From the NCBI GenBank assembly GCA_024975835.1, contig GCA_024975835.1_4840.1: a stretch of 64,000 nucleotides of DNA; one strand, given 5' to 3'. The DNA is from a phage. A model generated the notes under the pieces. That model ran no database searches. It worked only from the letters and a program-made list of their open reading frames with translations, and was not told where the DNA came from. A program made the translations under genes and the position numbers. Positions 11,923-53,700 of the stretch are shown in pieces (the stretch's first letter is position 1; every line of letters begins with the position of its first letter).

Positions 11923-12551
11923 CCCACAACCTCCAGACCCATCAGATCTTCCATGGTCTTCTGAATACGCAGCCAGTCAAGCGCAGCGTCATAACGAGGG
12001 TCATGATAGACCATACCTTCCAGTTCCCACGCCTTGATACCAGCATACCGATCCTGCTGTCCAACACCCTTCAGCCAACTCACGATGTCGAAGGTGTGGT
12101 GGTAGTCCCAAGGCTCGTTGGAGTCCTGCTTACATGTCACCTCAATGATGTGCTGAGCCTTGCGCAGATCAAACAGGTTGCGATCACACCAGTCGACCGA
12201 GCGCGGGTCTACCCCAAGACGATGACAACCCTTGCGGATTTCATCGGCCAATTGGAAGATAGAGATGTCATCTTCCTTGGGGTACAGACTGACTGCGCGA
12301 GCCGCATCACACGGGTTACGTTTACCCGCCCCCAACCACCATTCTACCGTCCCAGCGTCCTTCACGCGACCAAGTTCGAGCTGCTCTTTGACATTCAGCT
12401 TAATGAACGTCGTGCGCTCCTCAACCAGCTGCTGAAGAGTATAACGCTTGGTCAAGTCAGCGATGGTATGTGCCCAAGACAGCATGACTGCATCATCCCA
12501 GCGCCCCAGGGTTTCGCTGTCGGCCACAGCCAAAAAATTTGATTTATACAT
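11919..12551 (-). CDS. DEDDh 3'-5' exonuclease (DexA-like)
   Basis: Exo I-like LAVADSETLG and Exo III-like YHDPRYDAALD motifs. Confidence 0.6.
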   Translation of the reverse strand: MYKSNFLAVADSETLGRWDDAVMLSWAHTIADLTKRYTLQQLVEERTTFIKLNVKEQLELGRVKDAGTVEWWLGAGKRNPCDAARAVSLYPKEDDISIFQLADEIRKGCHRLGVDPRSVDWCDRNLFDLRKAQHIIEVTCKQDSNEPWDYHHTFDIVSWLKGVGQQDRYAGIKAWELEGMVYHDPRYDAALDWLRIQKTMEDLMGLEVVG

Positions 12552-12795
12552 GTTTATTCTCCCAACACTTTATTTTGGCTTTTACTGTATAATAATTTTC
12601 ATCAATGAACTTTTTGTTGACGCGCTTAATTTCTATCTCTGGGCAAAGTAACCCTATAGTTTCCCTCAAAATCTGGCTCACCCTGGCCTGTGAAATACAA
12701 TAAATTTCTGATACTTCTTTCGAACTAGTTCCAGACATGACAAGTTTTAGAATATTGACCTTTTTATAAAATTCTTGATCAAACGCACATATCAT
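12544..12795 (-). CDS. small helix-turn-helix protein
   Basis: 83 aa; central segment resembles a sigma-region-4/LuxR-type HTH. Confidence 0.4.
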   Translation of the reverse strand: MICAFDQEFYKKVNILKLVMSGTSSKEVSEIYCISQARVSQILRETIGLLCPEIEIKRVNKKFIDENYYTVKAKIKCWENKHV

Positions 12796-12798
12796 TAT

Positions 12799-13413
12799 TC
12801 ACCCCTCCTCGTCGATGATTTCTTGCTCATCTTCGACAATCATGATACCTTCTGCGTCCAGATGAGAAAGTTCCATCAGATCATTATCGAATCCGTCTCC
12901 TTCCCTGATATAGAAGACTGGGACGACACGACGGCGGGTCTCTTCATACACGCTTTCAGAGATTCGATTGATATGGCGTACTACACTGTAGAGGTTCAGG
13001 CCACCAATACCACAGCCGATAGCAGGCAGGCCGACATAGACAGTTTCGTCTTTAGTTGCTTCCACAATTTCATGCACCTGCTCAAACAGGGTCTGAACAG
13101 AACTGATGACAGACGGCATGCGAGCGTTCGGGCCTGGATAAAACTGAGTGTAGAGGTTCGCGCCCCAAACGCCCTTGCTGTGGTCAAATGCATAGGACAT
13201 ACCACCCAGGCGTTGCTCTGGACCACGAGGGTCGTTCGCATCGACTTCGCGCAGCGCTGGGAAGTTGTTGCCGATGTGCAGGGCAATACCCGCGCCCATG
13301 GTAGACCAACAGTTGGCACCGTGGGCAAAGATGTCGATCAGATTGAAGCTACAGGCGGCTTTCAGTAAATCGCCGCCATTGATTACATAGGTTGTCATGC
13401 GTACTGTCTCCAT
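12799..13413 (-). CDS. macro-domain protein (ADP-ribose binding or hydrolase)
   Basis: HGANC...GAGIALHIG...GIGGL pattern typical of macro domains; acidic C-terminal tail. Confidence 0.7.
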   Translation of the reverse strand: METVRMTTYVINGGDLLKAACSFNLIDIFAHGANCWSTMGAGIALHIGNNFPALREVDANDPRGPEQRLGGMSYAFDHSKGVWGANLYTQFYPGPNARMPSVISSVQTLFEQVHEIVEATKDETVYVGLPAIGCGIGGLNLYSVVRHINRISESVYEETRRRVVPVFYIREGDGFDNDLMELSHLDAEGIMIVEDEQEIIDEEG

Positions 13414-20011: not shown

Positions 20012-20269
20012 TCATTCCTCTTCATATTTGCCTGTCCTGAAGTTCCACTTTCGCGCATTCTTCAGGTCGAGGTCTTTGAAGATGTTTCCAAAGATCTTTT
20101 GGAAGGAGGTCTGCTCTTGTTCTTCCTCAAGATCCTTGGGCTTCTTGACAGGCTCTTTCACCATACCGCCTTCGGGTTTCCCCACATCGGCGGTCGTGGT
20201 TCCAGGGGCTGCTGAGTCTTCAAGGAAGTCCTGGAAGCCTTTCATGATTAGACCGCAGCCATTTCGCAA
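20012..20269 (-). CDS. hypothetical acidic/basic protein
   Basis: 85-aa ORF immediately upstream of the terminator. Confidence 0.4.
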   Translation of the reverse strand: MRNGCGLIMKGFQDFLEDSAAPGTTTADVGKPEGGMVKEPVKKPKDLEEEQEQTSFQKIFGNIFKDLDLKNARKWNFRTGKYEEE

Positions 20270-21069
20270 CGAGTAGAGGTCACAGAGTGGCCGTCAGCGT
20301 CTTCAACAACACACCAGTACTCACCCTCGTTTTCGGCAGCAACTGCAGTGATAACCAGGCTCGCAGTTGCAGCAGTGGGGTTAGTGCCAGCATCGATCAC
20401 CTCACCTTCACCACCAGGGACATCAGAGAAGTACCAAGTATGTGTGTATGGGGTAGTGCCGCCTGTAGCAGCGATGGTGAAGGTTGCGGATTCACCTGTT
20501 GTTACATCCTGAGAAGCAGCCAGATCGGTAGACAGAGACAGAGCGCCAGCCACTGTGATGACGGTAGAGTCAGTGTGGTCACCTTCGATGGTCACGCCAT
20601 AAACTGTTACCGAGCCAGGGGCCAGCAGCTTGAATTTACCACCACCGATGTGCACAGCTTTGGTCAGATCGCCAGAGTACCAGTTGACACCCTGGTAGGT
20701 CGCGTTCTCCGGAGCGACGACCGCCTTCAGTTCAACAACCTGACCGACTTCACCATTAGCAGTTTCAGGGGTGATGGTCAGGCCAGTGGTCAGCACAGCG
20801 CTTGGGTCGTGGATTTCATAAGACAGCTGGAAGCCAACGGGCTTGGTTGGATCCACTTTGGTGACGCCATCGGCCTGCAAATTGCTCTTGGTCAGCAGTG
20901 CATCCAGACCTTTACACTCAGTCAGGATCTCGTCTGGGTCTTGGTTAAGACTGGTCTTTTCCCAACCCCGAGCAGTACCTGTTACAGTGTGAAGACGCTC
21001 AGTTTCCGGTTTGTTGCGAACAACTTCCGGTGCTACTAATACAGTGATCGTTGGCATGGTTTCCTCCAC
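20248..21069 (-). CDS. Ig-like domain protein (possible Hoc-like capsid decoration or adhesin)
   Basis: Thr/Val-rich beta-strand repeats and C-terminal GEYWCVVEDADG, typical of Ig-like (I-set/Big) domains. Confidence 0.6.
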   Translation of the reverse strand: MEETMPTITVLVAPEVVRNKPETERLHTVTGTARGWEKTSLNQDPDEILTECKGLDALLTKSNLQADGVTKVDPTKPVGFQLSYEIHDPSAVLTTGLTITPETANGEVGQVVELKAVVAPENATYQGVNWYSGDLTKAVHIGGGKFKLLAPGSVTVYGVTIEGDHTDSTVITVAGALSLSTDLAASQDVTTGESATFTIAATGGTTPYTHTWYFSDVPGGEGEVIDAGTNPTAATASLVITAVAAENEGEYWCVVEDADGHSVTSTRCEMAAV

Positions 21070-28239: not shown

Positions 28240-28809
28240 TCAGCCTTTGAAGTTAATCGGTTTCTGAATACCAGCGTCGAACGCGGCCTGGGTACGGGTA
28301 TCGCTCACCACCTGGCAGGTCTTGTCAAGGTCGATACGCGGGTAGCCGAACATGCCAGCAATCAACGAACCAGGGAACTGAGCCAGCTTGGTTTCGTATA
28401 TTGTGCAGATATCCAGCTTCTTGGTCTGGCTGATGCGGAATTCATCACGCCCAGAACTGATCACCACCTGGATCTCTTTGTACAGGCTGGAATCGAACTG
28501 AATATTCTGCTCCTGGATCCACTGCATGACGGCCTTGGAACCATCAGCACCATAACGCCCTTCGAACGTGCCTTTGATCACTTCCTTCAAGCCGTCTTTA
28601 TACATGTCAGGAATCTGCGCCGTCTCCTGAACTTTGAGCGTGTAGTTGCTCAGGTAGTTCTCGGAGTCTTTGTTGAACTTCTTGACCTGCTGCTCAGTGC
28701 GGTTGAAGTCGTTGAAGTAGCTGATGACTGTACCGATGCCGAGAATCACTACACCCAGAAAAGCCAAACCAACTATCCAACCTGTTGCAATACCCTTAGA
28801 TTGAGACAT
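28240..28809 (-). CDS. membrane-anchored protein (LemA-like topology, tentative)
   Basis: 189 aa; single N-terminal TM helix followed by a soluble domain. Confidence 0.5.
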   Translation of the reverse strand: MSQSKGIATGWIVGLAFLGVVILGIGTVISYFNDFNRTEQQVKKFNKDSENYLSNYTLKVQETAQIPDMYKDGLKEVIKGTFEGRYGADGSKAVMQWIQEQNIQFDSSLYKEIQVVISSGRDEFRISQTKKLDICTIYETKLAQFPGSLIAGMFGYPRIDLDKTCQVVSDTRTQAAFDAGIQKPINFKG

Positions 28810-28827
28810 TCTTACTTCCTCTTTTGA

Positions 28828-30751: not shown

Positions 30752-30797
30752 CAAAAAGAAAGGGGAACGGGCTAATATTAACCCATTCCCCTTTATT
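30752..30797 (-). terminator. intrinsic terminator hairpin
   Basis: GGGGAACGGG...CCCATTCCCC stem-loop flanked by A-rich and T-rich runs. Confidence 0.55.
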
Positions 30798-30819: not shown

Positions 30820-30988
30820 ATTACTTTTTCTTCAGCTCTTCCAGCTTGGCTTCGATTTGTTCCAGGATGTCCTTACCCTTCTGAACAATCACTTCACCGT
30901 CTTGCGCGTGTTTACGGAAGACCAGAGCACCAGCTACGAAACCGACAACAACGCCAGGAAGCGCGTACACCAACAGATCTTGTAACAT
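30820..30988 (-). CDS. hypothetical small membrane protein (56 aa, not in ORF track)
   Basis: MLQDLLVYALPGVVVGFVAGALVF...; below the 60-aa track cut-off; ends just before the terminator. Confidence 0.3.
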
Positions 30989-31024
30989 GATAATATCCTC
31001 ACTTTATAGGCGAGGATATTTATA

Positions 31025-32263
31025 TCAGCGTTTCAAGAGTGTCATGAGGTTGACGCTATGTTTGCGCGGCTGCTTGTCCTCAACCTTGCGCACAGGCATC
31101 TTCAGGTTCGTACATACCTCGGATGGTTCCCAGCGCGTACCCTTTTGCAGGTGCCAGATGTGCAGAGGAACGCCAGTCTCAAAGAACACAGGCATCTTCC
31201 ACTTCTGGACGCCTGGAACGTGCCCTGCAGGAGCCTTTTCACACAACAGGGTATCTGGCAGCCAGAGCGAACGGGCTTCCCAGAGCGCTGCGCAGGAGTA
31301 TTCAGGCCAGACGCGTTCCATGTAGTCTATCTCATCCCAGGTACGCTCTGCGTCCCACCCGATGTAACGGGTATTCTTCAGTCGGAAGAACTTCTTCAGC
31401 CAGCATGCACCGGAGGTTTCAAAGTTCAGACGGTTGATGAACGTCAGGTGCCCGAACTCAGCCACACAATCCTGGAACGCCTGCTCAAGGTCGGCCTCAA
31501 GGATGTCACACTCTTCATCCGTGATAGGACAACCGTTGATCTTTTTCTTCCCGTGTTTAGTCACCCAATCGTCACGGTTGGACAAGAACGCCGCGCCATT
31601 ACGGTTGGACTCGCTTCCATCACGATCACGCAGCATGAAGCCAGGGACGTCAATGGTGTATTCGTTCCCGAAGACCATGTTCAGGGCTTCCAGGAAGTTC
31701 CAGGCGCTCAGGCGACCGAAGTATTTCCAGGACATCGCCGTGTCCCACAGCTGGGTGAATTGTTCTGTCTTATCGATGCACACCAACATCCCACGGAAAG
31801 CGTCATATTGAGTACGGCCAGCCAGCCAGTCAATATAGGACTGAACACACGGAATCATCTTGGACTTGCGGTAGCGACAGTCGGTATCGAATCGCATGCG
31901 TTCAAAGTTCAGGTTATACCAATCAGAGAAGCGCTGCATCTCTTCCTTAGACTGAGGCGGCACAGGGAACTCACTGTAGATTGTCCACGGTCCGACAGCG
32001 TTATAGCAACAACCCCACAGGAATGCCATCCAGATCTTGCGCTCGACTTTCTGTTCGAGGCTGATGCCTTCAGTGACTTCGATCGCATAGTCCATCAGAC
32101 GCATCTGCTGGTTGTGCTCTTCTGTGTAGGACAGCGCCTCCACCCAAGCCTTGAGCAGGTACATGCGATTCTCAGGCTTGCGATAATCAACAGCCAGGTC
32201 AATCGGGTACTTCCATTCAGCCGGAGGCGTATAGCCCGTCGGCATTTTAGATAAATGATGCAT
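31025..32263 (-). CDS. large hypothetical protein, candidate DNA base-modification enzyme
   Basis: 412 aa, Trp/Cys-rich; sits in the kinase-phosphatase-polymerase neighbourhood. Function assigned by context only. Confidence 0.55.
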   Translation of the reverse strand: MHHLSKMPTGYTPPAEWKYPIDLAVDYRKPENRMYLLKAWVEALSYTEEHNQQMRLMDYAIEVTEGISLEQKVERKIWMAFLWGCCYNAVGPWTIYSEFPVPPQSKEEMQRFSDWYNLNFERMRFDTDCRYRKSKMIPCVQSYIDWLAGRTQYDAFRGMLVCIDKTEQFTQLWDTAMSWKYFGRLSAWNFLEALNMVFGNEYTIDVPGFMLRDRDGSESNRNGAAFLSNRDDWVTKHGKKKINGCPITDEECDILEADLEQAFQDCVAEFGHLTFINRLNFETSGACWLKKFFRLKNTRYIGWDAERTWDEIDYMERVWPEYSCAALWEARSLWLPDTLLCEKAPAGHVPGVQKWKMPVFFETGVPLHIWHLQKGTRWEPSEVCTNLKMPVRKVEDKQPRKHSVNLMTLLKR

Positions 32264-32603
32264 CTTTCGCTTCCTCTTCAGGAGCCAACTGAATGTCTTC
32301 TGGTTTCACAAACCCCATCGGACGTTCCCACATATCGATGAAGCGGCGGTCGGCGGTCACAAACCAAAGACGGGCTGCAGTGTGGGTCTTACCCGAGATG
32401 AACATCTGGGCATTCGTCTGGGTACGGAACGGAGCCGCCTGCAACCACTTACCGAAGTCTTTGGACGACGGATTGGCATTCAACTGGAACTGAGGGATGA
32501 CGCAGTTCTTTTCAGGAATCAGGCGCACGGCAGTAATGTGCTTGGCGTTTCCGGTGTAGTCGATCGCAACAGCCACAGCATCGCGAGGGATTTGAATTTT
32601 CAT
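32247..32603 (-). CDS. hypothetical protein
   Basis: 118-aa ORF. Confidence 0.45.
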   Translation of the reverse strand: MKIQIPRDAVAVAIDYTGNAKHITAVRLIPEKNCVIPQFQLNANPSSKDFGKWLQAAPFRTQTNAQMFISGKTHTAARLWFVTADRRFIDMWERPMGFVKPEDIQLAPEEEAKDASFI

Positions 32604-32803
32604 TTTGGTTCCTTGAATATTTTATAGCCAGCAGCGCCGATAGCCATAATCGCGCCGATACAATACAACATGGTCAGGTTCATCTTTTCTGAGGTTGTTA
32701 AGTCCAGAGGGGTGAAATGATAGGCTAGGGCAGTACACATTGAAACGGCTGCCATAACCAGACCAATGAACAACAGATAATTAGACAACCGTTTCATGAT
32801 CAC
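32600..32803 (-). CDS. hypothetical small membrane protein
   Basis: 67 aa, two hydrophobic helices. Confidence 0.4.
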   Translation of the reverse strand: MIMKRLSNYLLFIGLVMAAVSMCTALAYHFTPLDLTTSEKMNLTMLYCIGAIMAIGAAGYKIFKEPK

Positions 32804-33717
32804 CCCTTCTTCATCAGGTCAAGGAGAGAGCGCGACGCTGCCTTCGTTGCTTCTGGCTGGGCGCTCGCCTTGGTTTTAGTTTTGGATGCCTTCTGCGGCT
32901 TCTCAGGGACTCTGTGCGCCAAAGGATCCTGGCCGCCGATTTCACGAGTCATCGGATTGGTTTCACAGTAGGCGTAGAAGTCTTTGGTGTCCATGTTAAC
33001 TTCACGCAGTTCGGACCGTATCTGATGACAAATCGCATTACCCACAACCCACAGCGGGGCGTCGAACGGTAGTACCGCCAACTCGGACTGCTGTTTGGTC
33101 GTGAACTCCTGGGTGTTGGCGTCCGGTGATTTATACAGGATATCCTGTCCGCTGTAATCATCAACAGCCACAGTGAAGCCCAGCGCCAGCATTTCGGCCT
33201 TCGACTTCTCAAACTCCTTGTAGTAAGATTCGTTGCGCGACCAGCCGGAGTTCCCTGCTTCTTTACCAGATCGACCACGGATACGAGCATCGTACTGATA
33301 GCGGTCGGGGTACGCAAAGTACAGCAGCGCCAATGATTCAATCGGATAGTTCTTGAACATCCATTCAGGACGCCATTTGTCCGATAGCATGAGGGGTTCA
33401 CCCTCGCACACCAGAGTGTATCCCTGAACCAACCAGCACTTGATTAGATCACGAGCAATATCGCCTGAGCCTGTAGCAGCATGGATTGCATCCATTGAAG
33501 TCCAGGAAGCCAGGCCGGATTTGTTAGACACGGTGTACTGTCCAACGAAGATTAACTTCAGCTCTCCGAACTTCAAGCCAAACGGGCGAGTCTTGTCACC
33601 AACGGTGTAGGTCAGTTCGGTAGGCTCCAGCTTAGTGCGCAGCCATTCGATGAACTGGACCACTCTCGTACCCTTGCCCGTGGCCGAGGTGCCTTTCACT
33701 ACGATAATTTTTGCCAT
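32800..33717 (-). CDS. P-loop kinase (polynucleotide-kinase-like; candidate 5-hmdU DNA kinase)
   Basis: Walker A VVKGTSATGKGT at N-terminus; Lys/Thr/Ala-rich basic C-terminal tail. Confidence 0.6.
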   Translation of the reverse strand: MAKIIVVKGTSATGKGTRVVQFIEWLRTKLEPTELTYTVGDKTRPFGLKFGELKLIFVGQYTVSNKSGLASWTSMDAIHAATGSGDIARDLIKCWLVQGYTLVCEGEPLMLSDKWRPEWMFKNYPIESLALLYFAYPDRYQYDARIRGRSGKEAGNSGWSRNESYYKEFEKSKAEMLALGFTVAVDDYSGQDILYKSPDANTQEFTTKQQSELAVLPFDAPLWVVGNAICHQIRSELREVNMDTKDFYAYCETNPMTREIGGQDPLAHRVPEKPQKASKTKTKASAQPEATKAASRSLLDLMKKG

Positions 33718-34022
33718 TACACAGCATCCTCAATACGCCAGCTCACGCCGCCCAGCCAAGGTGCCCAGAACACAGCAACCTGTGGGCGGCCATTCTCTTC
33801 AAACTTCACTTTATACTGGTCGTCGAAGTTATAGAAGATTTCATCCGCTTCAGAGCGCTGGCCGATCTTCACCAGTACATCATGAAGAGCCTTGGCTGCA
33901 CCGATAGGAGTCGGAGTCTCCTGCTGACGAATGAAGTTGTTCACATGGTTAATCACGCCATCCATGTCGCTATCACCGAAACGCTCGTCGGGGATTTCCC
34001 CGAACTTGGATTGTTCTTGCAC
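33717..34022 (-). CDS. hypothetical protein
   Basis: 101-aa ORF. Confidence 0.45.
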   Translation of the reverse strand: MQEQSKFGEIPDERFGDSDMDGVINHVNNFIRQQETPTPIGAAKALHDVLVKIGQRSEADEIFYNFDDQYKVKFEENGRPQVAVFWAPWLGGVSWRIEDAV

Positions 34023-34031: not shown

Positions 34032-34811
34032 CTATCGGACGTATTGATAATGACTAATCAGGCGGTTCACCACTTCGACAATATTGCGGTTCAGGAAGTC
34101 GAAGTGATTCTGGCCTTCTACTGGTTTAATATAAAGCATGTCTTCCGAATTCGAAAGATCCAGTTTTTCATAATTGCCCTGAGGAACAAAGATGACAAAG
34201 ATGTTGTTCAGGCCACACGGCTCGACATACTTCGGATTGTCATCAATCAGGACATCGCCAGCCAGCAGATGCTTTTCGTCGGTGCTGACAAACCCGTTGA
34301 AGATACCAGGGAACTTGTCATAGACAAACTGACGCTTGCTGCGCTCGTGTTCCGGCTCGCACTTCGACACCGCGATGAATTCCACATTGTCGAAATCTTC
34401 AAGCAAGATATCCTTCAGATTTACCAGGAACTCGTAAGCGCCGGGGAGCGGGTTCATCTTGGCGTACAGGTCAGGGCGACGCCACCAATCCATAGGATCG
34501 TTACCGCTTGGCACACGTTGTTTGTGCATCCCCAATTGGACTTCATGGTATAGCCACGCCGGATGCGCACGTTCACGCATCAGAATAGCCAGGTCGCCAG
34601 CATGGGACATATAACACTCTTTGGTGATCGGCTGGAACTGGTATGACTTATGTTCCCCCGTAGCGATAGCAGCGGCGGCGATGTTCTCTTCGTTGAACCA
34701 CTGCACCCAAGGGGAGAGGCTGTCGACCAACGTCAGGTCAACATCCACGAGGACGCGATACAGGCCACCGACCTTTGATTTCATATCATAGATACAAACC
34801 AGGTTGTTCAT
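34032..34811 (-). CDS. HAD-superfamily phosphatase (putative nucleotidase)
   Basis: DxDxT motif I (LVDVDLTLVDS) near N-terminus. Confidence 0.55.
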   Translation of the reverse strand: MNNLVCIYDMKSKVGGLYRVLVDVDLTLVDSLSPWVQWFNEENIAAAAIATGEHKSYQFQPITKECYMSHAGDLAILMRERAHPAWLYHEVQLGMHKQRVPSGNDPMDWWRRPDLYAKMNPLPGAYEFLVNLKDILLEDFDNVEFIAVSKCEPEHERSKRQFVYDKFPGIFNGFVSTDEKHLLAGDVLIDDNPKYVEPCGLNNIFVIFVPQGNYEKLDLSNSEDMLYIKPVEGQNHFDFLNRNIVEVVNRLISHYQYVR

Positions 34812-35211: not shown

Positions 35212-38211
35212 TCAACCTTTCTTCTTTTGCATCATGGCAAGAAGGTTCACACGGCGCTTGTGTGACCAGCCGACCACGTCGAGGATAGACTGAATCGGAT
35301 CAATGAAGGACTTCTCAAAGGCCGCCTGATAATCCACCCATTTGCCCAGACCAAGCTCCTCAGGGAAGAACTCAGGATATGCGAAGTAATTCTGGCCGAA
35401 TGGGTTGCCTGGCTTCAACAACACCATCTGTACCTTATCACCCGACTCGATCATCGGCAGGCCGAGATCTTCGTTCTTCTCAACCAGACGGTTGTAACCC
35501 ACACAAGCCTTTGCAGCAAAATGAGCACCAGAGATGAACGATCCGTCAGCAGCCACACACTTCTCTATGTCGGACACGCCTGACGCCTTGGCGATATCGT
35601 CTACAGAGAGTTTCATGTACTCCTCTTTGTACTGGGAGATGAGCGCCTGTACTTCCTCTTCGGTGCCGAGTAGGATCTTCTCATAGCACTTGACAAGGCG
35701 CTCACGACACCATTCCGGCGTGGTGGACTTGCGGGCTTCCAGACCTTTGAACTTGATCTTCGGCTTCTCGTACTTGATACCCTCACTGTCGTACACGGCC
35801 ATGGCATACATCTTCTTGGCTCGCCAGACAGCGGCTGACGCAATGACCTCACGCTCCCACACCATGCGCTGTTCAAATCCGTTCATGGTGTTACATAGAA
35901 GCTGTGCCCACTCATTGGTCTTCGGCTGGTAGTTGTCTTTGATCCATTGGTCGATATTATCAACCATAGCATGATGGTCAGTAACATCAGGCCACAACTG
36001 CTTGACAAGACGCTCAATGCAGATGTAGTTGGAGTCGGTATCCCCTGCGATGACGAAGTCCTGACCTGTTGTACCACACAGCTTGTTCAGATAGTCATCA
36101 GTGTAACGCTTGTTCCACTTGTTGATCAGCTGACCGGATGTGGTGATGGCTTCGGCAATGTTGAGGTTGAAGTACTCTTTGAACCAGACGTTTGAGATCG
36201 CGCCATAACCTGCGTTCATCAAGATCTTCAGACCTTGCTGAAGGGTATCTTGAGCAACGCCCAGATCTTCCCACTTCTTCATCACTTCGGTCAGTGCATC
36301 AAGATCAACGTTCTTGTGCTCTTCATACCACTCTGGGTCATAGTAGCGAGACTTCATGGCAGACTCAAGATGGAAGTCGCCCTTCGACATCTCTTTACAC
36401 CAGCCAGCCCACTGCTCATACTTCAGACCCTTGGCCTTCTCTACTTTACGGTCGCTGTAGATACCACGCATGATTTCAGACAGGAACGACATCTTCTCGT
36501 TGCTGAAGAACTGAACGTTCGGCGTGAAGGACACGTTGTAGAGGCGCAGGGTTTCAAAGTGGAACTCACCCAGGGCAACCAACTCATCAACAACCTGCAG
36601 GCGTTCGTCAACCGCACGCAACAGCTTGTCGTGAAGGGCTTTCATCAACCGACGTTTGTGCATCGGCGTTGCCATGTTATTCATCTGAGCAGCCAGCTCT
36701 TCACACATAGCCTCAATAATCTCGCGGCGCTGGTGTTTGTCGCCAACGATAGTCTCTGGACCGAGGTTGTACTGCTGAATGATGTGAGGATACAGGGAGT
36801 TCAAATCTTCCGAGAAGACCCAGAAGTAGATTCCTGGTGTCACATCCATGACGTATGCACCCTCAAAGTCGGTCGGACCATCGTATACACGCTGGATCTT
36901 AGGCACTATCCCCTTCTCGTACAGGCGATAGTAGCACATGGCCAGCCACGGAGCCACAGTGCCCAGACCGTCTTCATAGTTGGACTTGGTGCGGTAGGCC
37001 AGGACGAACATCAGCTGGAGCAGGCGCAGCTTCTGTTCAAGTCGCCATACCAGCTTAACGTCTTTGATACCATATCGGGTGTGTTTGCAGTAGTCGTTGA
37101 AGTACAGATCAAAGAGCGACTTGCTCTCACTGTAGTCCATCTTCTTCTCACCCAGCTCACAATACGCAATCCAGTCAAGAGAGTAGCGTTCACGGGTGGT
37201 GTACGTGTGTTTCTTGTAGATCTGCATATAATCGAGCATAGGGCAACCCACGAACTGATACGTCGTGATATCGCCCTTCTTATCGCGAATGATACGCTTC
37301 TTAATGATACCCCAAGGACTGAGGCGCGACGTTTCAGCCTCTCCCAGAACCTGATTCATGCGCTCAACAAGATAAGGGCTATCAAACGTCTCAATGTTCC
37401 AGCCAGTCCATCCGTCGAACTGACGCTCCGACCAGAAGTCCAGGAAAGAGCGCAGCAGGTCTTGTTCGGTGGTGAACTCCTGATAAACAACCTCCAGGCC
37501 GCCGATCTCTTTGTCTTCTGCGTCATAGGTGAATTTGTTACGATCTTTGGCGCACGGCATACCCCAGACCATGAACTTGTTGGTCGCCATATCCTGAAGC
37601 TGGATCAGGGTAATGGGGAACGCCGCATTCATGTCTTGGGTGATCTTGCCGTTGCTGTCAATGATAGGGAACTGATCAGTGACGTTGTTGCTGATGAAAG
37701 AACCAGGGAAGTGCTCACGGACAAAATCATGGTTGGCCAGCACTTGTTTATGGAAGCGGCGAATGCGCGCCTCATTCCCTTTGAACGTCTGCTGCTCAAT
37801 GGTTGGGTGAGGGAATGGACCTTTGGTCATCTTTCCGTCTTTCCACCCGGCGGAGAACACTTCGATATCGAGGTTAGCAATATGGATGTTGGAATAATCC
37901 GGCTCAATCTTTCCAGGAAAGCTATGGGCGATGAACTGGTATGCATAATCGGTCTGCCCGTAAATGGCAGCACCCTGGACTTCCTTGTACTCTTCAAGAT
38001 AGTTGTCAGCGTCACGCATGGAAGGGAACTGCTTGGCTACCAGGGGTTCATTGAGAAGGCCAACCTTTTCAACATTTGAATAGTCAGCCGTGGGTAAATA
38101 GAGAGTGGGTTCGAATTTCTTTTTCAACAGACGGCGATTACCCATGTCATCTGCAATTCGAATCAACAGGTCATTGCCCCTGCGGGCAACGTTCGTATAG
38201 AAAACGGTCAT
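35212..38211 (-). CDS. family-B DNA polymerase (T4 gp43-like)
   Basis: N-terminal FPSMRDA, Exo I NLDIEV, WTGWNIETFDSPYL, and polymerase motif C IAGDTDS; 999 aa, uninterrupted. Confidence 0.9.
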   Translation of the reverse strand: MTVFYTNVARRGNDLLIRIADDMGNRRLLKKKFEPTLYLPTADYSNVEKVGLLNEPLVAKQFPSMRDADNYLEEYKEVQGAAIYGQTDYAYQFIAHSFPGKIEPDYSNIHIANLDIEVFSAGWKDGKMTKGPFPHPTIEQQTFKGNEARIRRFHKQVLANHDFVREHFPGSFISNNVTDQFPIIDSNGKITQDMNAAFPITLIQLQDMATNKFMVWGMPCAKDRNKFTYDAEDKEIGGLEVVYQEFTTEQDLLRSFLDFWSERQFDGWTGWNIETFDSPYLVERMNQVLGEAETSRLSPWGIIKKRIIRDKKGDITTYQFVGCPMLDYMQIYKKHTYTTRERYSLDWIAYCELGEKKMDYSESKSLFDLYFNDYCKHTRYGIKDVKLVWRLEQKLRLLQLMFVLAYRTKSNYEDGLGTVAPWLAMCYYRLYEKGIVPKIQRVYDGPTDFEGAYVMDVTPGIYFWVFSEDLNSLYPHIIQQYNLGPETIVGDKHQRREIIEAMCEELAAQMNNMATPMHKRRLMKALHDKLLRAVDERLQVVDELVALGEFHFETLRLYNVSFTPNVQFFSNEKMSFLSEIMRGIYSDRKVEKAKGLKYEQWAGWCKEMSKGDFHLESAMKSRYYDPEWYEEHKNVDLDALTEVMKKWEDLGVAQDTLQQGLKILMNAGYGAISNVWFKEYFNLNIAEAITTSGQLINKWNKRYTDDYLNKLCGTTGQDFVIAGDTDSNYICIERLVKQLWPDVTDHHAMVDNIDQWIKDNYQPKTNEWAQLLCNTMNGFEQRMVWEREVIASAAVWRAKKMYAMAVYDSEGIKYEKPKIKFKGLEARKSTTPEWCRERLVKCYEKILLGTEEEVQALISQYKEEYMKLSVDDIAKASGVSDIEKCVAADGSFISGAHFAAKACVGYNRLVEKNEDLGLPMIESGDKVQMVLLKPGNPFGQNYFAYPEFFPEELGLGKWVDYQAAFEKSFIDPIQSILDVVGWSHKRRVNLLAMMQKKKG

Positions 38212-38290
38212 GTAATTCTCCAGGTTATCCGTGCCGTTAGCACGTGGGCATATTTAACCATAGAGCCATTCATTGACCAAGGAGTTTAAT

Positions 38291-39812: not shown

Positions 39813-40268
39813 TTCTTCCCAGAAGTCTTCGTCGTCCCCGACAGCAGCCAGTTCCGTGTCCAGTTCTTCATCGGTAAACGGTGGCAGCACCCCGTTCTGA
39901 ATCAGATAATCCATCTCATCATCTTCCAGCTGCAGGTCGGTGGCAATATACAGCGCTCCGCTGCCCTCTTCGTCCGTCTCGATACTGTACGAAGTGTATG
40001 GCACCCCATTCACTGTAATGATGATAGACGTTGGATCCTTGGGATCTACGTGCGCCTCGAACGGCACGCCATCAATCGGTGCGTCTTCCAGGAAGGTGGC
40101 AAGTGCTACGGCGGCGCGGACAACATCAGTGCCTTCAACGCCTGCATAGATCTCTTCCGCGCCTGTCTCTTCACGATCAAACAGCTCAATCGTGATACCG
40201 TCTTGAACACCAGTCCATACAGGGATGTCATTAGTGTATTCTGATTCAAACAATTTGGAGGTTGGCAT
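39810..40268 (-). CDS. hypothetical highly acidic protein
   Basis: 152 aa, Asp/Glu-rich throughout. Confidence 0.45.
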   Translation of the reverse strand: MPTSKLFESEYTNDIPVWTGVQDGITIELFDREETGAEEIYAGVEGTDVVRAAVALATFLEDAPIDGVPFEAHVDPKDPTSIIITVNGVPYTSYSIETDEEGSGALYIATDLQLEDDEMDYLIQNGVLPPFTDEELDTELAAVGDDEDFWEE

Positions 40269-40300
40269 GTTAGGTTCCTCAGTGGGTTAGCCATATGGGG

Positions 40301-40412: not shown

Positions 40413-41606
40413 TCAGGAAGGGGTGAAGTCGTTCACAGGAACTGTTTCAGGGATAGCCAGCTCAGGGCATGCTGCCTTCATTGGCTCAATGTACGGCTTA
40501 CTACCCACAATCCAGAACAGAGTGTTCTCATTGAGCAACTCTGGCTTGTTCTGCTGGATCCAGGTCATGACCTTGCCTTCATAGCGAGGATGCAACTCAA
40601 TATCGCCCCACTGATATTCCATCAGGTCATTATAACGAACCCAATTAGTGGTATGAAGATCCCAATGGTGTACCTCAAAGCGAGGAAGCACGACCTCTGG
40701 CTCTTCCTTCTGCCTGATACCACTTAGGAGGCCAGCCAGCGAAACGCTCTTAGAGGCATGCTGAAGCTCCTTCTTGCCGTGTACATAGTCTGGGTTGTCG
40801 TGATAGCGACGGGTAAAGTCGACAATGTGCGGCAGATTGGCATGTTTGCCGATGATGCGCAGGCGGCTCTCGATAAAGTCAAGGCGGTTAGGACCGATGC
40901 CGATTAGATACACACGCTTCAGATTAGGCTTCGGATGCATTGCCAGCCCGGTCAGGATGCTTGTGCAAGAGTTGCACGATCCGGCTGGGATGATCAGGTC
41001 AGTAATGTGATCAGGAATGTTGGCAACCTGCTCGCCACCCAACATATGGAACCCAGCAATGCGCTCAGGGGAGTGGGCTGTATGGTCGAGGGTGATACCA
41101 TACTCCAGATAATACGCCTTTGGATTCTGTTGTTCGATCAACTTCTTACAGCGCGGCTGGATGGTGCTGTTGTAACCCGAGCCGACGAAGTTGAACTCAC
41201 TACCAAACCAGGCTGACATTGCCACCATTTCATGGTTCATACAGGTGGTGGGTTTGGTCGCGCCGAGCACAGTAGTTGTCTTGCCGCCGAAGTGCCGAGA
41301 GACTGCTGTCGCCATAGGGGACTGCGGACTACCAACGACAGTACCATGGATGATGTCAGGGGAGCCTCCGGCCTTGAGGTGCTCAACCATCAACCAGATG
41401 GCCTGGCGGAGTTTGCTGCCATTGATGCCCTGCTTGGCGTTGGCATAGTTAGACAGCGGCGCAAAATAATCTTCACGCTTGAACCAGACCTGCTGGTTGG
41501 TTTCGGGATTGACGACAAGTTCGCACGGGGTGTGCTTGTAGAGATAGTCTTCCCAGTGAACCAGATTGCGGTCGAGGGAAAGGGTATCGAAAATGGTCTT
41601 GTTCAT
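40413..41606 (-). CDS. PLP-dependent enzyme (fold type II, ACC-deaminase / Trp-synthase-beta-like)
   Basis: NGSKLRQ lysine motif and Gly-rich loops typical of fold-type-II PLP enzymes; start at MNKTIFD with AGGAG upstream. Confidence 0.6.
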   Translation of the reverse strand: MNKTIFDTLSLDRNLVHWEDYLYKHTPCELVVNPETNQQVWFKREDYFAPLSNYANAKQGINGSKLRQAIWLMVEHLKAGGSPDIIHGTVVGSPQSPMATAVSRHFGGKTTTVLGATKPTTCMNHEMVAMSAWFGSEFNFVGSGYNSTIQPRCKKLIEQQNPKAYYLEYGITLDHTAHSPERIAGFHMLGGEQVANIPDHITDLIIPAGSCNSCTSILTGLAMHPKPNLKRVYLIGIGPNRLDFIESRLRIIGKHANLPHIVDFTRRYHDNPDYVHGKKELQHASKSVSLAGLLSGIRQKEEPEVVLPRFEVHHWDLHTTNWVRYNDLMEYQWGDIELHPRYEGKVMTWIQQNKPELLNENTLFWIVGSKPYIEPMKAACPELAIPETVPVNDFTPS

Positions 41607-41676
41607 TCTATTTTCTCCTGTAGACATTGGTTTATCATAGTGTATCTACAGGAGTATAGAAAAGGAGAATCTCGGC

Positions 41677-42675: not shown

Positions 42676-42764
42676 TGGCGGAAGGTGAAGGATTCGAACC
42701 TTCGGGGGCTAAAAGCCCCACTCGATTAGCAATCGAGTCCCTTAAACCTCTCGGGCAACCTTCC
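42676..42764 (-). tRNA. tRNA-Ser (anticodon GCT)
   Basis: Folded by hand: 7-bp acceptor GGAAGGT/ACCTTCC, anticodon stem CTCGA/TCGAG with loop TTGCTAA, long variable arm, T-loop GGTTCGAATCC, encoded CCA. Confidence 0.8.
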
Positions 42765-42984
42765 AATTTGGACGGGCTTCGCACCCGATTGAGCATTTGA
42801 TCTACCGTAGCCCAACTCCCCGCGCTTCTCAGCGCCGATTGGTTAACTGGCGACCAGTGCCTTCTGGTTCGATCTCCTGGAACTTTACAGGCTTTGCGCC
42901 AGACCATTTCTGGAAGTTGGGGCATCGTTTCCGATGTGGAGTCACCCCATTTTATACACAGCTGGCTGCAACGCTTACTGTGTT

Positions 42985-43068
42985 TGGTGTGAGTGGATGG
43001 ATTCGAACCACCGCGCTGTTACGGGGAGATTTACAGTCTCCTGCATTCGACCGCTCTGCCACACTCAC
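42985..43068 (-). tRNA. tRNA-Tyr (anticodon GTA)
   Basis: Acceptor GTGAGTG/CACTCAC, anticodon loop CTGTAAA, long variable arm, T-loop TTCGAAT, encoded CCA. Confidence 0.8.
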
Positions 43069-43325
43069 ATTTGGTCTGCCGCTGCGTGCTGGGCCACGCT
43101 CGAGGACATCGGCCATCCTTCCTCAGCTAATCCACGCAGCGGTAGATTTGTATCAGAGTGTCCGGTGTAGCAACCCGTGAGGTGCGCACTACTGTAGCCT
43201 CTACACTCTGAATTTGGTGGGTGTTACTATCGTCGTCTTCGGATTCCGTTCGGCTATTGGACAGAGGCTTGGAGCTTGTCGGTCGCGTACTTTATGCCTA
43301 TTCACTTTCGTTCACACCCATTGTC

Positions 43326-43401
43326 TGGCGACGATGGCAGGACTTGAACCTGCGACATATGGATTAACAGTCCACCGTTCTACCGACTGAACTACATCGT
43401 C
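43326..43401 (-). tRNA. tRNA-Asn (anticodon GTT)
   Basis: 76 nt; acceptor GACGATG/CATCGTC, D-stem GTTC/GAAC, anticodon loop CTGTTAA, T-arm GCAGGTTCAAGTCCTGC, encoded CCA. Confidence 0.85.
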
Positions 43402-43562
43402 TTGCAAATCACTATACCATATAAAGTTTATTGAACAAACATTTATTTTACAACAAACTGTATTGGCGGGGTCTGAGGCTTTTCACCTCACCTGCTGGGT
43501 TTGGCCGCCCAGCCGTTCTCTATGAGGATTCACTGTCCGGACAGCTATCCATTAAACTATCG

Positions 43563-43639
43563 CCCCTCAATATGGTGATCCTGATTGGGTTTGAACCAAT
43601 GACCAATGAATTATGAGTTCACTGCTCTAACCGACTGAG
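43563..43639 (-). tRNA. tRNA-Met (anticodon CAT; Met or Ile2 not distinguishable)
   Basis: 77 nt; acceptor GGTCCTG/CAGGATC, D-arm GCTCAGTCGGTTAGAGC, anticodon loop CTCATAA, T-loop GGTTCAAACCC, encoded CCA. Confidence 0.8.
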
Positions 43640-45033
43640 CTACAGGACCAAATTATTGTGTGACCAACCAAGGACTGTCAACCCTTTATCCCGTTTGTGC
43701 ATGATCAGTTCATACAGGCCTCTTTGTGCTGCCTCACGGCATGCGCTTCTGTTGGTCATTGGCTTACACTGTGGCCTCACAACAGGCGTTTATTTTTCCA
43801 GGGCTTTCCACTTACAAGTCTTAACCAGACCGGGATACGGGCTTGTAAGATCGGGTTGGACACAACTTTGAGGACACTGACGACGTATACGAGTCACCCA
43901 TAACAGATATTCGGATGCCAGTGTCCTCAAAGTTGCAACCAATGTCGCAACTCGCAGCTTCCATACAGAAGCAACTTGTCCTCTAACGCTCGGACCAAAC
44001 GAGGCTGGCTGGTTGATTCAGAGCCGCTGGTTGCTCCAGCAAGCATGGGTTGATAGCCCGGCAACATAGAATCACCCAAAGATGAAGAACATTCATGACT
44101 CACATCACACCACGAATGGCCTGAAAGAGAATCGAACTCTTTAAATGCTCTTCATTTTGTGAACTTGAGAATACTACGCCTGTCTCGGGTTTCCCCTTAG
44201 TTCGGCCTCCCAGTCCTCGCCGCGCCGGGTAGCTAACCCTGATGGCTCGTCTGCTACTGAGTTCTTCTTGGTGCCCACCAGTGTCCGGAATGTGTAGGCA
44301 TCGCAATCTGCAAGGCATGGTCTATTTCACCCAATGCTCTCTCAAGTTCACAAATCGAAGTGCCCTGACTCAACAGTATGGCCCAATATGCTGTTATCGT
44401 CCACCGGATTGGCCGCCCAATTTGTAGATCAACCTTTGGGTTTAAGATAAATTGTCAAGGCACTTCGATTTGTGTGCCCTTCACCTGCCAGGGATCAGGG
44501 CTGATGGCAAGACTTCGCTCACATCTTTCAAGATACTCGTGAGAATATCCTCAAAGATGTGGAGCCGTTTTAGGGAGTCGAACCCAAATGCTTGGCCAGC
44601 GCTGACCTTACATCCCATCTGACTTAGGCAACCCACCTCTGCTTACTCAGGAGCTTATCCCCTTTGGACAGTCAGATATAACGGCATTGTCGACGGGAGC
44701 TTATTAATCACACCCTCCCGTCTATTTTAGTGCGCCGAATTTGGTGATGAGGAATCGGAAGACCTCACTGACTTATAGGCTGTTACGCCGCCATCAGAAC
44801 TTCGGAATCATTAGCAGTTATTTGCTTGGTCAGTTTCTAAAAACCCGCAAAGTCACTCACAACGAAAACGAAAACCTGTTTGAGCACAAGACGCCATGTC
44901 CTGGGTTCACATCGAAGTGTTTGTCTAATGCCCAAACAGCTTTTCGTTCAGTGGGTTAACTATACTTTGTAACCCGTTATTGACAAAACCTTAAATTAAG
45001 TTGCGGTGTACTCAAGACCACCGCACTATTAAT

Positions 45034-49552: not shown

Positions 49553-50743
49553 ATGGCCGATTTTCTGAGTCAATACACAGGTCAGCAGATTGATGCAATC
49601 CTTTCTTCTGTTGACGATAAAATAAGCAAGACTGATGTTGTCAACGATTTCGCTGTTGATGATCCGTTGTTCCCTCCTTCAGCTCATTTGACATACGAGC
49701 TGAAGCGTTCTGTGGATAATATCTACGACACACTGGAAAACAAAGTGATCCGCACCGACGGTGGTGAACAAACGATCAACGGGAGAAAGACTTTTGTTGC
49801 GTTGTTGACCGCCAACGGCGGCCTGACTGTTCCGGCTGGAAAGAAACTTTCTATCGCGGATGAGCCTACGATAGCGACAGATGGTGTTAACCTGAGCATG
49901 TTGAGAAAGCATGGTGTCAGTGAAGACACTACCCCACCTGGTTCTGGTTTGGCTGGGGAGTTGTTGGCATCCGGATATTACAAATTCAATTTGGATTTCA
50001 CCAAATTGTCTGCGTATATCGGATCAACGTTGCCGACTTCAATCCCAGTACAAACAGATTCTGGAGCGCGTTATTGGACAATGACTGCATTTTTTGATGC
50101 GTTGTTTGCAGATAACCGATTTAATGGATATGTGACAACGACAGCGTATGATGCAGATATGCTGAGTTTAGAGTCCCAGATTAATAACATCAACACATCG
50201 TTGAACGGGAAAGTCAACACATCGACTTACAACACTAAGATGGCGTCATTGGATTTGAGTATCTCCAATATCAATACGTCTCTGGGTAATAAAGTCGAGG
50301 TCAGCACGTACAACACGAAGATGACATCTCTGGATAACAGCATCAGTTCTCTTTCCAGTGATAAAGTTAATGTATCAACGTATAATGCCAAGATGACCTC
50401 TGTCGACAATAGTTTAGGGAACGCCGTTTATCGTACCAAAACGAATTTGTCTTCTTACACGGTTTCGGCTTCTGGGACGACGGCTCTTCCAGATTTTGAT
50501 TTGGTGAACCTTTGTCAAATACTGGTGACCGCGCAATGGGGAACAGGTAACGTTGTTGATACATATCGAGTAACCATAACTCGCGACGGAACTATCAAAT
50601 CGGAGTTGTTGGTTCAGAAAAGTACGAGCGGTACAGTGACGTTCACAGGTTCTGTGGTGGGTGGTAAATTGAGAATTTCCGTTGTTAATGCGAACACGAC
50701 GACTGCGTGCTACGTTGACTACAATCTAGTCGCTTCTTTCTAA
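49553..50743 (+). CDS. tail-fibre-like protein with tandem 23-aa repeats
   Basis: 396 aa; repeats of the type N(I/T)SL(N/G)xKVxxSTYNxKM(A/T)SLDxS in the central region. Confidence 0.5.
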   Translation: MADFLSQYTGQQIDAILSSVDDKISKTDVVNDFAVDDPLFPPSAHLTYELKRSVDNIYDTLENKVIRTDGGEQTINGRKTFVALLTANGGLTVPAGKKLSIADEPTIATDGVNLSMLRKHGVSEDTTPPGSGLAGELLASGYYKFNLDFTKLSAYIGSTLPTSIPVQTDSGARYWTMTAFFDALFADNRFNGYVTTTAYDADMLSLESQINNINTSLNGKVNTSTYNTKMASLDLSISNINTSLGNKVEVSTYNTKMTSLDNSISSLSSDKVNVSTYNAKMTSVDNSLGNAVYRTKTNLSSYTVSASGTTALPDFDLVNLCQILVTAQWGTGNVVDTYRVTITRDGTIKSELLVQKSTSGTVTFTGSVVGGKLRISVVNANTTTACYVDYNLVASF

Positions 50744-50751
50744 AGTGAAAA

Positions 50752-50758
50752 CTAAATA
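50752..50758 (+). promoter_or_regulatory. late-promoter-like CTAAATA motif
   Basis: ACTAAATACCCC 38 nt upstream of the ATG at 50796. Confidence 0.4.
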
Positions 50759-50795
50759 CCCCTAGATGAAACGAACACATTTAGGGGTATTTGAA

Positions 50796-53700
50796 ATGGC
50801 TAATAAACCAACACAGCCTGTTTTCCCTCTCGGTCTGGTGGCTGAAGAGCAGTCTACTTTGGCTGGTGTCGTCAACACGGGTACGATTGAGCATGGACCA
50901 GATGCTGTCCTGACTTTACCCGAGGGTAATGCCAGCGCAGGACTCCCGTCTTCCGTTCGCTACAATGCCGACTCCGACGAATTTGAGGGCTTCTATGAAA
51001 ATGGTGGATGGTTGCCGCTGGGTGGCGGTGGTATCCGCTGGGAAGTCCTTCCGCATGCCTCTACGGCAACGCTCACTGAAGGGCGAGGCTATCTCATTAA
51101 TAATACCACAGGGGCATCTACAGTGGTTCTCCCTTCCCCTACGCGTGTTGGGGATTCTGTTACTATTTGCGACGCTTATGGGAAATTTGCCACTTACCCA
51201 TTGACTGTGTCTCCTTCTGGAAATAATTTGTATGGCTCCACTGAAGACATGGCTATAACAACTGATAACGTATCAGCAACGTTCACTTGGTCTGGACCTG
51301 AACAAGGTTGGATTATTACATCCGGCGTCGGTCTTGGCCAAGGTCGTGTCTACAGTCGTGAAATCTTTACAAAAATTTTGGCGTCTGAGACAAGTTCTGT
51401 CACTCTCAATACTCCACCAACAATCGTGGACGTGTATGCTGATGGAAAACGTCTTGCGGAATCCAAATATTCACTAGATGGGAATGTAATCACTTTCAGT
51501 CCTTCTTTGCCAGCCAGCACAGAACTTCAGGTGATTGAATATACTCCTATTCAATTGGGTATTGGGGATGGTTCTGGCTCTTCCACGATTACCTGGGTCT
51601 ATAATGGGGGTTCAGCGATTGGTGGTGAAACCGAAATCACGTTGGACGTCGTTGTTGATGATGTTCCGGCCATTGATATAAACGGAAGTCGCCAGTATAA
51701 AAATCTGGGGTTCACATTCGATCCATTAACCAGTAAAATCACTCTTGCGCAAGAACTGGAACCAGAGGATGAAGTTGTTGTAATTATCAATGGAACACCA
51801 AACATCTATAATCAAATTGATCATACTTTGCGGGAAGTTGCTCGCGCAACCAATGTTAAAGATACAGAGGTCGTTTATTTTAGTGTTGGTGCTGCGTTAA
51901 GTGGGTATAAAGTTATTTATGACAAGGAGACGCAAAGGGCTTATCCCTTGCCTGCTGATATTGCCCCTGGTACTACTGCTGTCAGTCTTAGTTCTTCCGC
52001 TGTACTTGTGCATTCAGCGGGTTCTGTAGACCTCGGGGAATTGGCTGTTACTCGTGAAGAGTACGTCACATTGTCCGGAACATTTGATACTGGTGTAACA
52101 GTTAATACCAAGAATGAACTGGTTGTTTTTACTGATGGTAAGTACCGTTGGGATGGGGTGTTGCCTAAAGAAGTTTCTGCTGGCTCAACTCCAGAGACTG
52201 CTGGTGGTGTAGGTGCGGGAAAATGGTTGAGTGTTGGTGATGTATCATTGAGAGCCGACTTACTGTCAGGTGGCATGACTGATTTAATTGGATTTCCTGG
52301 GTACAACAATCTTACAGCATTCTTGCATACCACTGTTCGTACAGTAGAAGAGTTCAGAAGTGACGGACTAACTGACGCACAGGTATTCCAAGCGGCAATC
52401 AATGCAGGTAACGTGCGTGTGCCAGCAGGTAGCGTTATTAACATCACAGGGAATATTGATATCACTATCCCAGCCAATCGTTTAATTGTTGTAGATGACG
52501 GAGGTATATTACGCTCTAACGGTCGTTTTACAGCTTACGGCGTAAACGATGTTCATTGGGTAATTAACGGACTAGTTGAAAGCACTGGCATGGTTGCGGC
52601 CCCGGCAAAATCTGGATGGCCCAATACAGCAGAAGGCACTCAAGCGGGAGATGAGCGTGGGTTTATTGAGTTTGGTGGTGTTGTATTCGCCGGTAACGAT
52701 GGGAAGAATTATTCTGTAACTGGTTCAGGGCACATTCAGGGTCCATGGTCTGGAACTCCTAACGTTTCAGATTTAGCCAATCAGTTAAATAAAAAGGGTA
52801 TTGCTGCGTGGAACTGCTCAGGATTCACTGTTGAAGGCGTTAGTATCGACGGCTTTGAAGGTGAGCAAGTGTATTGGTTTGCTCGCAACGCAGACAACAG
52901 AGACGCAATTTTCAATAGAGTAAAAAGTACCAATGCACGTTTTAACGCCCTGAACATGAACGTGTACAGCGCAACAAAAAATATTCGTGTGATCGATTGT
53001 TACACCAATAATTCGTACAACGGAATTGAATCATCTGCTGGTGATATCATTAACACAATCCATGACAATCCGGTTAACACAGGTATTCTGTTTGGTTCAG
53101 GTACTGGTGGTGGCAACCGATTAATTGAAGGCAATCAGGTGAACGAATGCCTCGGAACACCTTATTCACTACTTTATAATAAGGACTATGAAAGTCGTGG
53201 GTATGTACCTAACGTTACAGTGGTAAACAACACCGCAACAAACCCCGGCGTTCACTTCATCGCCATCTCAGGCATCACTGGATTCAAAGTCGCCAACAAT
53301 ACATGTTACGGGCTTAAAACAGGTAGATTTATTCAGGCCACCGTTTTACAAGGCGGTATTATAGAAAATAATACTAACTACAAACCATCACCAGGGACAG
53401 AGCACGTCTATCGTGGCGAATGTTATAGCGTAGAAGAGCATAATAACGCGCGTGTACTTTTAGGCGGTTCGTATGTTACTGCCGCCGCGTCAGACCACGC
53501 CATAACCGGGGGGAATTCAAGCGCTATAACGACATTCGGCAATCGTGAAAACTTCAAGGATTTACGTGCTGACAGTCCAGCAATCGGAACTGGCGCAGAA
53601 CTTAGATACTCTGTTGATATAGGCGCCGCATTTACTCCTGTATCGTTAAGTATGCAACTGACCACATATGGGGGTTCAGGCGCTCAAGCTGACTGGTCTA

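Follow-up and report, generated by a model that had tools for sequence, protein, structure and literature searches.

A probable serine:DNA transferase gene in an Agtrevirus-like phage, orthologous to gp247 of Salmonella phage ViI

Background

About 40% of the thymidines in the DNA of Salmonella phage ViI are present as 5-(2-aminoethoxy)methyl-deoxyuridine (5-NeOmdU), and this base has been rebuilt on DNA containing 5-hydroxymethyl-deoxyuridine (5-hmdU) by lysates expressing the ViI proteins gp67, gp160, gp226, gp243 and gp247 (Lee et al. 2018, PMC5889632). According to a later study, gp243 and gp67 are 5-hmdU DNA kinases, purified gp247 places L-serine (followed by a 13C/15N label) on 5-phosphomethyl-deoxyuridine (5-PmdU) in DNA, the product being 5-O-serinylthymidine and not its N-linked isomer, and gp226 is a pyridoxal phosphate (PLP)-dependent decarboxylase that leads to 5-NeOmdU (Lee et al. 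2021, PMC8989533). Here we describe an open reading frame (ORF) of 412 aa, ATG to stop, on the minus strand at 31025..32263 of a 64,000-nucleotide stretch of phage DNA (GenBank assembly GCA_024975835.1, contig GCA_024975835.1_4840.1; the whole of this stretch is referred to as the window). Its product is very probably an amino acid:DNA transferase (AADT), the orthologue of the serine:DNA transferase gp247 of ViI, with the ORF on the opposite strand being non-coding.

The chemistry of this family has been approached experimentally in several phages. Replacement of the conserved Cys or of a nearby Glu by Ala abolishes the activity of both gp247 and gp51 of phage M6, a glycine:DNA transferase, and trapping of M6 gp51 with borohydride and thiol supports a covalent adduct between the Cys and C6 of the pyrimidine, with an exocyclic methylene at C5 (PMC8989533). 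In the crystal of gp46 of phage PaMx11 (PUGT, a 5-PmdU glycinyltransferase; PDB 8z2m and 8z2n) a flipped-out T lies in a pocket with Asp175 and the catalytic Cys247, and glycine is held by Asp24, Trp146 and Lys150 (PMC11472151). The modification genes are conserved across Ackermannviridae, according to a review (PMC11721090).

Results and discussion

Identification of the transferase

The 412-aa protein matches Pfam family PF18724 (AADT, formerly aGPT-Pplase2) with E=4.5e-60 and 203.7 bits (cutoff 26.2 bits). The match extends over residues 49-292 of the protein (31388..32119, minus strand) and over positions 2-228 of the 232 in the profile, and delimits the catalytic domain with its helical glycosylase-like core. 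Comparison with Vi01_199 (YP_004327568), which the note in its record labels orf00247, i.e. gp247 of ViI, yields a full-length alignment with a single one-residue gap (412 vs 411 aa), in which 367 of 412 positions are identical (89%) and 94% are positive. Homologues were found by tblastn in 379 phage records, 348 of them with at least 80% query coverage, mostly from Ackermannviridae infecting Salmonella, Klebsiella, Escherichia, Dickeya, Serratia and Vibrio; the protein database contributed 60 cluster representatives, with identity down to 40%, and PF18724 was present in each of the 60. Thus, the coding sequence (CDS) at 31025..32263 (412 aa plus stop) is delineated by the ORF itself, by the Pfam match, by the identity to gp247 and by the selection pattern described below, and the family membership of its product and its orthology to gp247 are established here.

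The initial annotation, made from the sequence by eye, had described the protein as an orphan with no recognisable motif, which is incorrect in view of the strong PF18724 match and the 379 records with homologues. The label arose because reading by eye is limited and because annotation lags behind: most GenBank records, including that of Escherichia phage YX22, say "hypothetical protein", and PHROGs gives unknown function. The accompanying guess that a base-transferring enzyme is encoded at this place of a hypermodification locus, on the other hand, is borne out by the Pfam match and the identity to gp247. A role as a structural protein, which had been considered as the opposite outcome, was rejected: no such homology was found, and in the structural comparison an enzyme gave the best match.

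Several searches gave no result. A single-sequence phmmer search of the PDB sequences returned no match, a 23-sequence profile run against the same sequences returned Rab-26 as the sole match, at chance level (E=0.77), and the hhalign comparison of the clade alignment with PaMx11 gp46 gave a non-significant probability of 0.9%; Foldseek likewise gave no link to PaMx11 gp46. The latter protein itself matches PF18724 (E=1.6e-27).

Over positions 20000-44000 the window DNA shares 95% identity with Escherichia phage AV101 (Agtrevirus) and 91% with both Shigella phage MK-13 and Salmonella phage SKML-39, and the nearest record for the transferase gene is that of phage YX22 (protein 98.8% identical), which is classified in Ackermannviridae, Aglimvirinae. 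Judging from these identities, the source of the window is an Agtrevirus-like phage of the Aglimvirinae, whereas ViI is a Kuttervirus.

The coding strand

The minus-strand ORF is accompanied over nearly its whole length by a plus-strand ORF of 398 aa, also complete from ATG to stop (31058..32254). The two share a common codon register, with mirrored GC content at codon positions 1/2/3 (0.535/0.397/0.671 vs 0.672/0.401/0.539). The ORF listing of the window agrees with the initial annotation in the positions of both frames, in the length of the minus-strand product and in the completeness of the antisense shadow ORF; its preference for the minus strand is borne out by comparison with orthologues.

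The orthologous gene was taken from seven other phages: ViI, YX22, Dickeya RC-2014, Klebsiella PWKp5, Serratia 3M, Vibrio D493 and Aeromonas TSW001. The minus-strand frame is intact in all eight genomes (the window phage and the seven others), whereas the antisense frame is open in the window phage only and is interrupted by stops in each of the orthologues (ViI 9, YX22 2, RC-2014 3, PWKp5 6, 3M 5, D493 13, TSW001 2); it is broken already in YX22, despite the 98.8% identity of the proteins. Nucleotide differences between the window and ViI are distributed over sense codon positions 1/2/3 as 39/23/156. The 171 codons changed with respect to ViI comprise 127 synonymous and 44 non-synonymous changes when read in the minus frame, and 15 synonymous and 156 non-synonymous ones when read in the plus frame, and the same pattern recurs in four other comparisons. 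The minus-strand frame is under purifying selection. Because of this substitution pattern and of the loss of the plus-strand ORF in every orthologue, the minus strand is identified as the real gene and the plus-strand ORF as a non-coding shadow, an artefact of codon usage.

That the plus-strand ORF represents the real gene, or an additional one overlapping the transferase gene in antisense, is extremely improbable. Its completeness and its length would argue for such a gene, as a stop-free run of 398 antisense codons has P ~0.002 for one gene when estimated from the codon usage of the neighbours, i.e. it is rarer than chance, but the frame is closed in all seven orthologues, its changes are nearly all non-synonymous, and it runs counter to all neighbouring genes. 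The predicted product matches no Pfam family and has an atypical composition (12.6% Leu, 10.6% Val and 9% Arg, with 0.3% Met and 1.3% Lys). The overlapping-gene reading was therefore rejected on the evidence of conservation.

The codons TTA, CTA and TCA become stops when they are read on the antisense strand, and the transferase gene contains 1, 0 and 0 of them, respectively, where about 6 would be expected from the neighbouring genes (1.5% of codons). It is because the sense gene nearly lacks these codons that the antisense ORF stays open. Several further genes of the window (11922-12569, 12802-13413, 20251-21069, 28243-28827 and 39813-40286) are likewise overlain for 91-99% of their length by same-register shadow ORFs, and another such ORF covers 627 codons of the DNA polymerase gene (35215-38253). 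In view of these other cases, and despite the per-gene P of ~0.002, the shadow ORFs reflect the codon usage of this genome, which is GC-rich at the third position and avoids TTA, CTA and TCA genome-wide, and not a peculiarity of the transferase gene.

Active site and structural model

In the alignments of homologues (23 and 34 sequences) the invariant residues include, among others, C129, E282, T283, C287, W288, K290 and K291. When PaMx11 gp46 and M6 gp51 are added with the clade hidden Markov model (HMM) and MAFFT, E243, T244 and C247 of both proteins fall on E282, T283 and C287, while D175 and R97 of gp46 fall on D213 and R132. The active-site motif E282-T283-S-G-A-C287 (31403..31420, minus strand) was delimited from this conservation and from the alignment to gp46 and gp51. 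By analogy with the characterised enzymes, C287 is the predicted nucleophile, which would attack the pyrimidine at C6, and the neighbouring acid, E282, is predicted to be essential.

The protein is rich in Trp (20 residues, 4.9%) and Cys (12 residues, 2.9%) in comparison with the 11 neighbouring minus-strand genes (1.6% and 1.1%, respectively, in 3717 residues), as the initial annotation had remarked. Since W78, W83, W115, W188, W288, C129 and C287 are invariant in the alignments, this richness is a trait of the family.

The AlphaFold2 model, for which the alignment of 34 sequences served as input, has high confidence (pLDDT 88.9, pTM 0.87), with disorder at residues 384-404 only, and exhibits the two-helical-bundle, glycosylase-like fold of PUGT, the solved member of the family. 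The region past the Pfam domain (residues 293-412; 31028..31387, minus strand), which was characterized from pLDDT, secondary structure and alignment, starts with confidently modelled Trp-rich helices (residues 293 to ~380) and ends with a short conserved terminal helix that follows the disordered segment. R294, R299, Y300, G302, T308, E311, A330, F360 and G364 are invariant in this region, and from residue ~341 onwards it has no counterpart in the glycine transferases of 291-292 aa. Both the fold and the conservation of the catalytic residues are thus established for the 412-aa protein.

A protein with a glycosylase-like core might also be an HhH-superfamily DNA glycosylase or lyase, which would remove a base rather than transfer a group to it, but we consider this hardly credible. 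No HhH-GPD signature or Pfam match was found in the 412-aa protein, and neither the HhH-type glycosylases (AlkA, Mag1, OGG, MutY, EndoIII) nor the queuine salvage family DUF2419 gave a sequence-profile match to it; the Z score is 16.1 for the transferase versus at most 7.5 for the glycosylases. The HhH glycosylases cleave the N-glycosidic bond, whereas the AADT chemistry is a substitution at the C5 methyl group via a Cys-C6 adduct. Moreover, the orthologue gp247 has a demonstrated transferase activity, and the essential residues are Cys and Glu and not the Asp/Lys of the glycosylases.

Nucleophile specificity and comparison with the glycine transferases

For the window enzyme, an AADT, the chemistry, the specificity for serine and the final base are inferred from the experiments on ViI, M6 and PaMx11. 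The nucleophile varies within PF18724, being glycine in M6 gp51 and PaMx11 gp46, serine in ViI gp247 and putrescine in PhiW-14 gp109 (PMC8989533), so that an enzyme of the same family could accept glycine, putrescine or a further amino acid, with a base different from 5-NeOmdU as the result. Such a change of nucleophile appears improbable here: although 45 aligned positions differ from gp247, the proteins are 89% identical, all family-invariant residues are retained, and the differences are concentrated in variable loops (residues 61-75, 105-115 and 150-172) and in the disordered C-terminal tail, while the cognate decarboxylase (see below) is 92% identical to gp226. Two kutterviruses are also known to carry 5-NeOmdU, and family-wide conservation of the genes has been reported (PMC11721090). 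The serine-transferring orthologue of gp247 therefore remains the preferred assignment, and the two proteins agree in the Pfam boundaries (49-292), in the N- and C-terminal extensions and in the motif E-T-S-G-A-C-W-L-K-K.

The relationship to the glycine transferases is more distant. M6 gp51 belongs to the same family, shares the catalytic Cys and Glu as well as a covalent exocyclic-methylene mechanism that has been both proposed and tested, and its product is decarboxylated by a PLP enzyme, as in the ViI pathway. It differs, however, in length (291 aa), in the nucleophile, for which it employs glycine's alpha-amine, in a radical-SAM isomerase that forms part of its pathway, and in the end product, 5-NedU. 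PaMx11 gp46 exhibits only ~11% identity to the 412-aa protein, and its 292 residues lack counterparts of ~40 N-terminal and ~70 C-terminal residues; in all, the ViI-type enzymes are ~120 residues longer than the glycine transferases of 291-292 aa. PUGT attaches glycine through an N-C bond, and the product goes on to an FAD oxidase and an acetyltransferase, not to a PLP decarboxylase.

The catalytic and nucleoside-contacting residues of PUGT are conserved in the 412-aa protein, whereas the glycine-binding residues D24, W146 and K150 are replaced by N51, L185 and N189, the last of which is invariant; at 11% identity the alignment of these positions is uncertain. N51, L185 and N189 are candidate specificity determinants. 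One may speculate, with a good deal of reserve, that they and the N- and C-terminal extensions redirect the attack from the alpha-amine to the hydroxyl of serine, and possibly limit the modification to ~40% of thymines. If this were true, the serine-type clade would be a structurally distinct subtype, and what it teaches about O- versus N-linkage would be a refinement within a known family. To our knowledge, no structure of a serine-type (O-linking) AADT has been solved.

Pathway partners and proposed mechanism

Partners of the transferase in the ViI pathway are encoded in the same window. The gene at 32800..33717 (minus strand), identified from its Pfam match and sequence identity, encodes the 5-hmdU DNA kinase (5-HMUDK, "kinase 2"), the orthologue of gp243: it matches PF18747 (HMUD2) with E=7.7e-158 and is 84% identical to Vi01_196/orf00243. 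It lies 537 nt upstream of the transferase gene and on the same strand. The initial annotation had placed the 412-aa ORF beside a P-loop kinase; the kinase is indeed there, but the two genes are not strictly adjacent, being separated by two small conserved ORFs (see below). The product of 40413..41627 (minus strand) is the PLP-dependent decarboxylase, assigned by its 92% identity to Vi01_182/orf00226 (gp226). Its match to PF00291 (PALP) is weak (E=2.5e-7, 30.8 bits, under the 35-bit cutoff), and it has a Lys at the position of the proposed PLP-binding lysine of gp226, K92. The presence of these two partners is established.

Following the pathway described for ViI, the phage DNA would be replicated with 5-hmdU replacing T, and the kinase would then phosphorylate a subset of 5-hmdU in the DNA polymer to 5-PmdU, the substrate of the transferase. 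The transferase would flip the base out, Cys287 would add to C6, and the phosphate would depart with the assistance of Glu282, leaving an exocyclic methylene at C5, to which the side-chain hydroxyl of free L-serine would add to form 5-O-serinylthymidine. The PLP enzyme would finally remove CO2 to yield 5-NeOmdU, a base that shields phage DNA from many host nucleases.

Several points weigh against extending this assignment to the complete pathway. Its specificity for serine and the final base are extrapolations from an orthologue with differences at 45 of the 412 aligned positions. A scan of ~30 large ORFs of the window did not reveal the dUMP hydroxymethyltransferase, the thymidylate synthase homologue that is the source of 5-hmdU, and neither the second kinase (gp67) nor the paralogous clade-1 transferase (gp160) was found in the window. 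When the window was translated in six frames and searched with the clade HMM, no second member of the transferase family emerged (next best E=3.4); the gp160 paralogue is therefore absent from the window. The genome-wide pathway cannot be confirmed from a window of 64 kb alone. In Ackermannviridae genomes the genes for the dUMP hydroxymethyltransferase and the second transferase lie elsewhere.

Gene neighborhood

The two small ORFs between the kinase and the transferase (together 32247..32803, minus strand) encode a protein of 118 aa (32247-32603) and a membrane-like protein of 67 aa (32600-32803), which correspond to phrog_4163 and phrog_4514, respectively; both are co-oriented with their neighbours, which they overlap, and are annotated in PHROGs as "unknown function". 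The same pair lies between kinase and transferase in ViI (Vi01_197 and Vi01_198) and is conserved in enterobacterial Ackermannviridae, but Vibrio phage D493 lacks it and has the kinase and the transferase directly side by side. The gene order is identical to that at 145-153 kb of Vi01: polymerase, small ORF, NT5C-like protein, DUF7254 protein, kinase, two small ORFs, transferase and 55-aa ORF.

The ORF upstream (32247-32603) contains the start codon of the transferase gene in its final 17 nt, and this overlap suggests translational coupling of the two. Reading of the sequence also revealed a Shine-Dalgarno-like GAGGA (32272..32276, minus strand) 8 nt upstream of the ATG at 32263. Directly after the stop codon of the transferase gene there is a 9-bp inverted repeat (AATATCCTC / GAGGATATT, 30992-31020) with an 11-nt loop, the 3' arm of which holds the GAGGA ribosome-binding site of the 55-aa ORF (30821-30988, minus strand), a single-transmembrane protein orthologous to Vi01_200. 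The repeat may control the translation of this ORF. The co-oriented run of genes is closed, downstream of the transferase gene and the 55-aa ORF, by an intrinsic-terminator-like hairpin of 16 pairs followed by a T run (30759..30794, minus strand), which was recognised by a consensus scan only.

Between the polymerase and the kinase genes there are genes for a DUF7254 protein (33717-34022, minus strand) and for an NT5C-like 5'(3')-deoxyribonucleotidase (34032-34811, minus strand; PF06941, E=9.5e-9). A pyrimidine deoxynucleotidase at this place could help to keep dTMP out of the nucleotide pool.

The kinase locus is apparently a hot spot for homing endonucleases. A SegD-like free-standing homing endonuclease gene lies immediately upstream of the kinase gene in PWKp5 (locus positions 851-1537) and in Vibrio phage D493 (1517-2200), but there is none at this place in the window. 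In the YX22 locus (845-2443) a CDS of 532 aa occupies the place of the 305-aa kinase of the window. Of the 497 positions of the profile phrog_15209 ("endonuclease"), only 203-497 align with the window kinase, and this partial match suggests that endonuclease-kinase fusions exist.

Other features of the window

Among the baseplate and tail genes there is a gene for a SegE-like GIY-YIG/NUMOD3 homing endonuclease (7143-7880, plus strand), on the strand opposite to its neighbours. A stretch poor in long ORFs carries four tRNA genes (42676-43649, minus strand): Ser(GCT), Tyr(GTA), Asn(GTT) and Met(CAT). The GC content drops from ~50% to 43-45% over four large ORFs (1169, 794, 692 and 692 aa) at 50000-62000 on the plus strand, which lie just downstream of the genes for the baseplate wedge. 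These are presumably a tail-spike cluster, and the drop in GC content would agree with a horizontal exchange of modules for receptor binding.

Conclusions

The gene described here is already known, as it encodes an experimentally characterised type of enzyme in a well-studied phage family. The family, its chemistry and its role in the formation of 5-NeOmdU were set out by the work on ViI gp247 (PMC5889632, PMC8989533), and one member of the family has been crystallised (PMC11472151). The practical value of the assignment lies in annotation, since the transferase is mostly recorded as "hypothetical protein" and the kinase is commonly mislabelled "guanylate kinase". For the biology of the window phage, the kinase, the transferase and the decarboxylase taken together predict 5-NeOmdU in its DNA; if this base is present, the DNA would be resistant to many restriction enzymes, which would be relevant to the cloning, sequencing and engineering of such phages.

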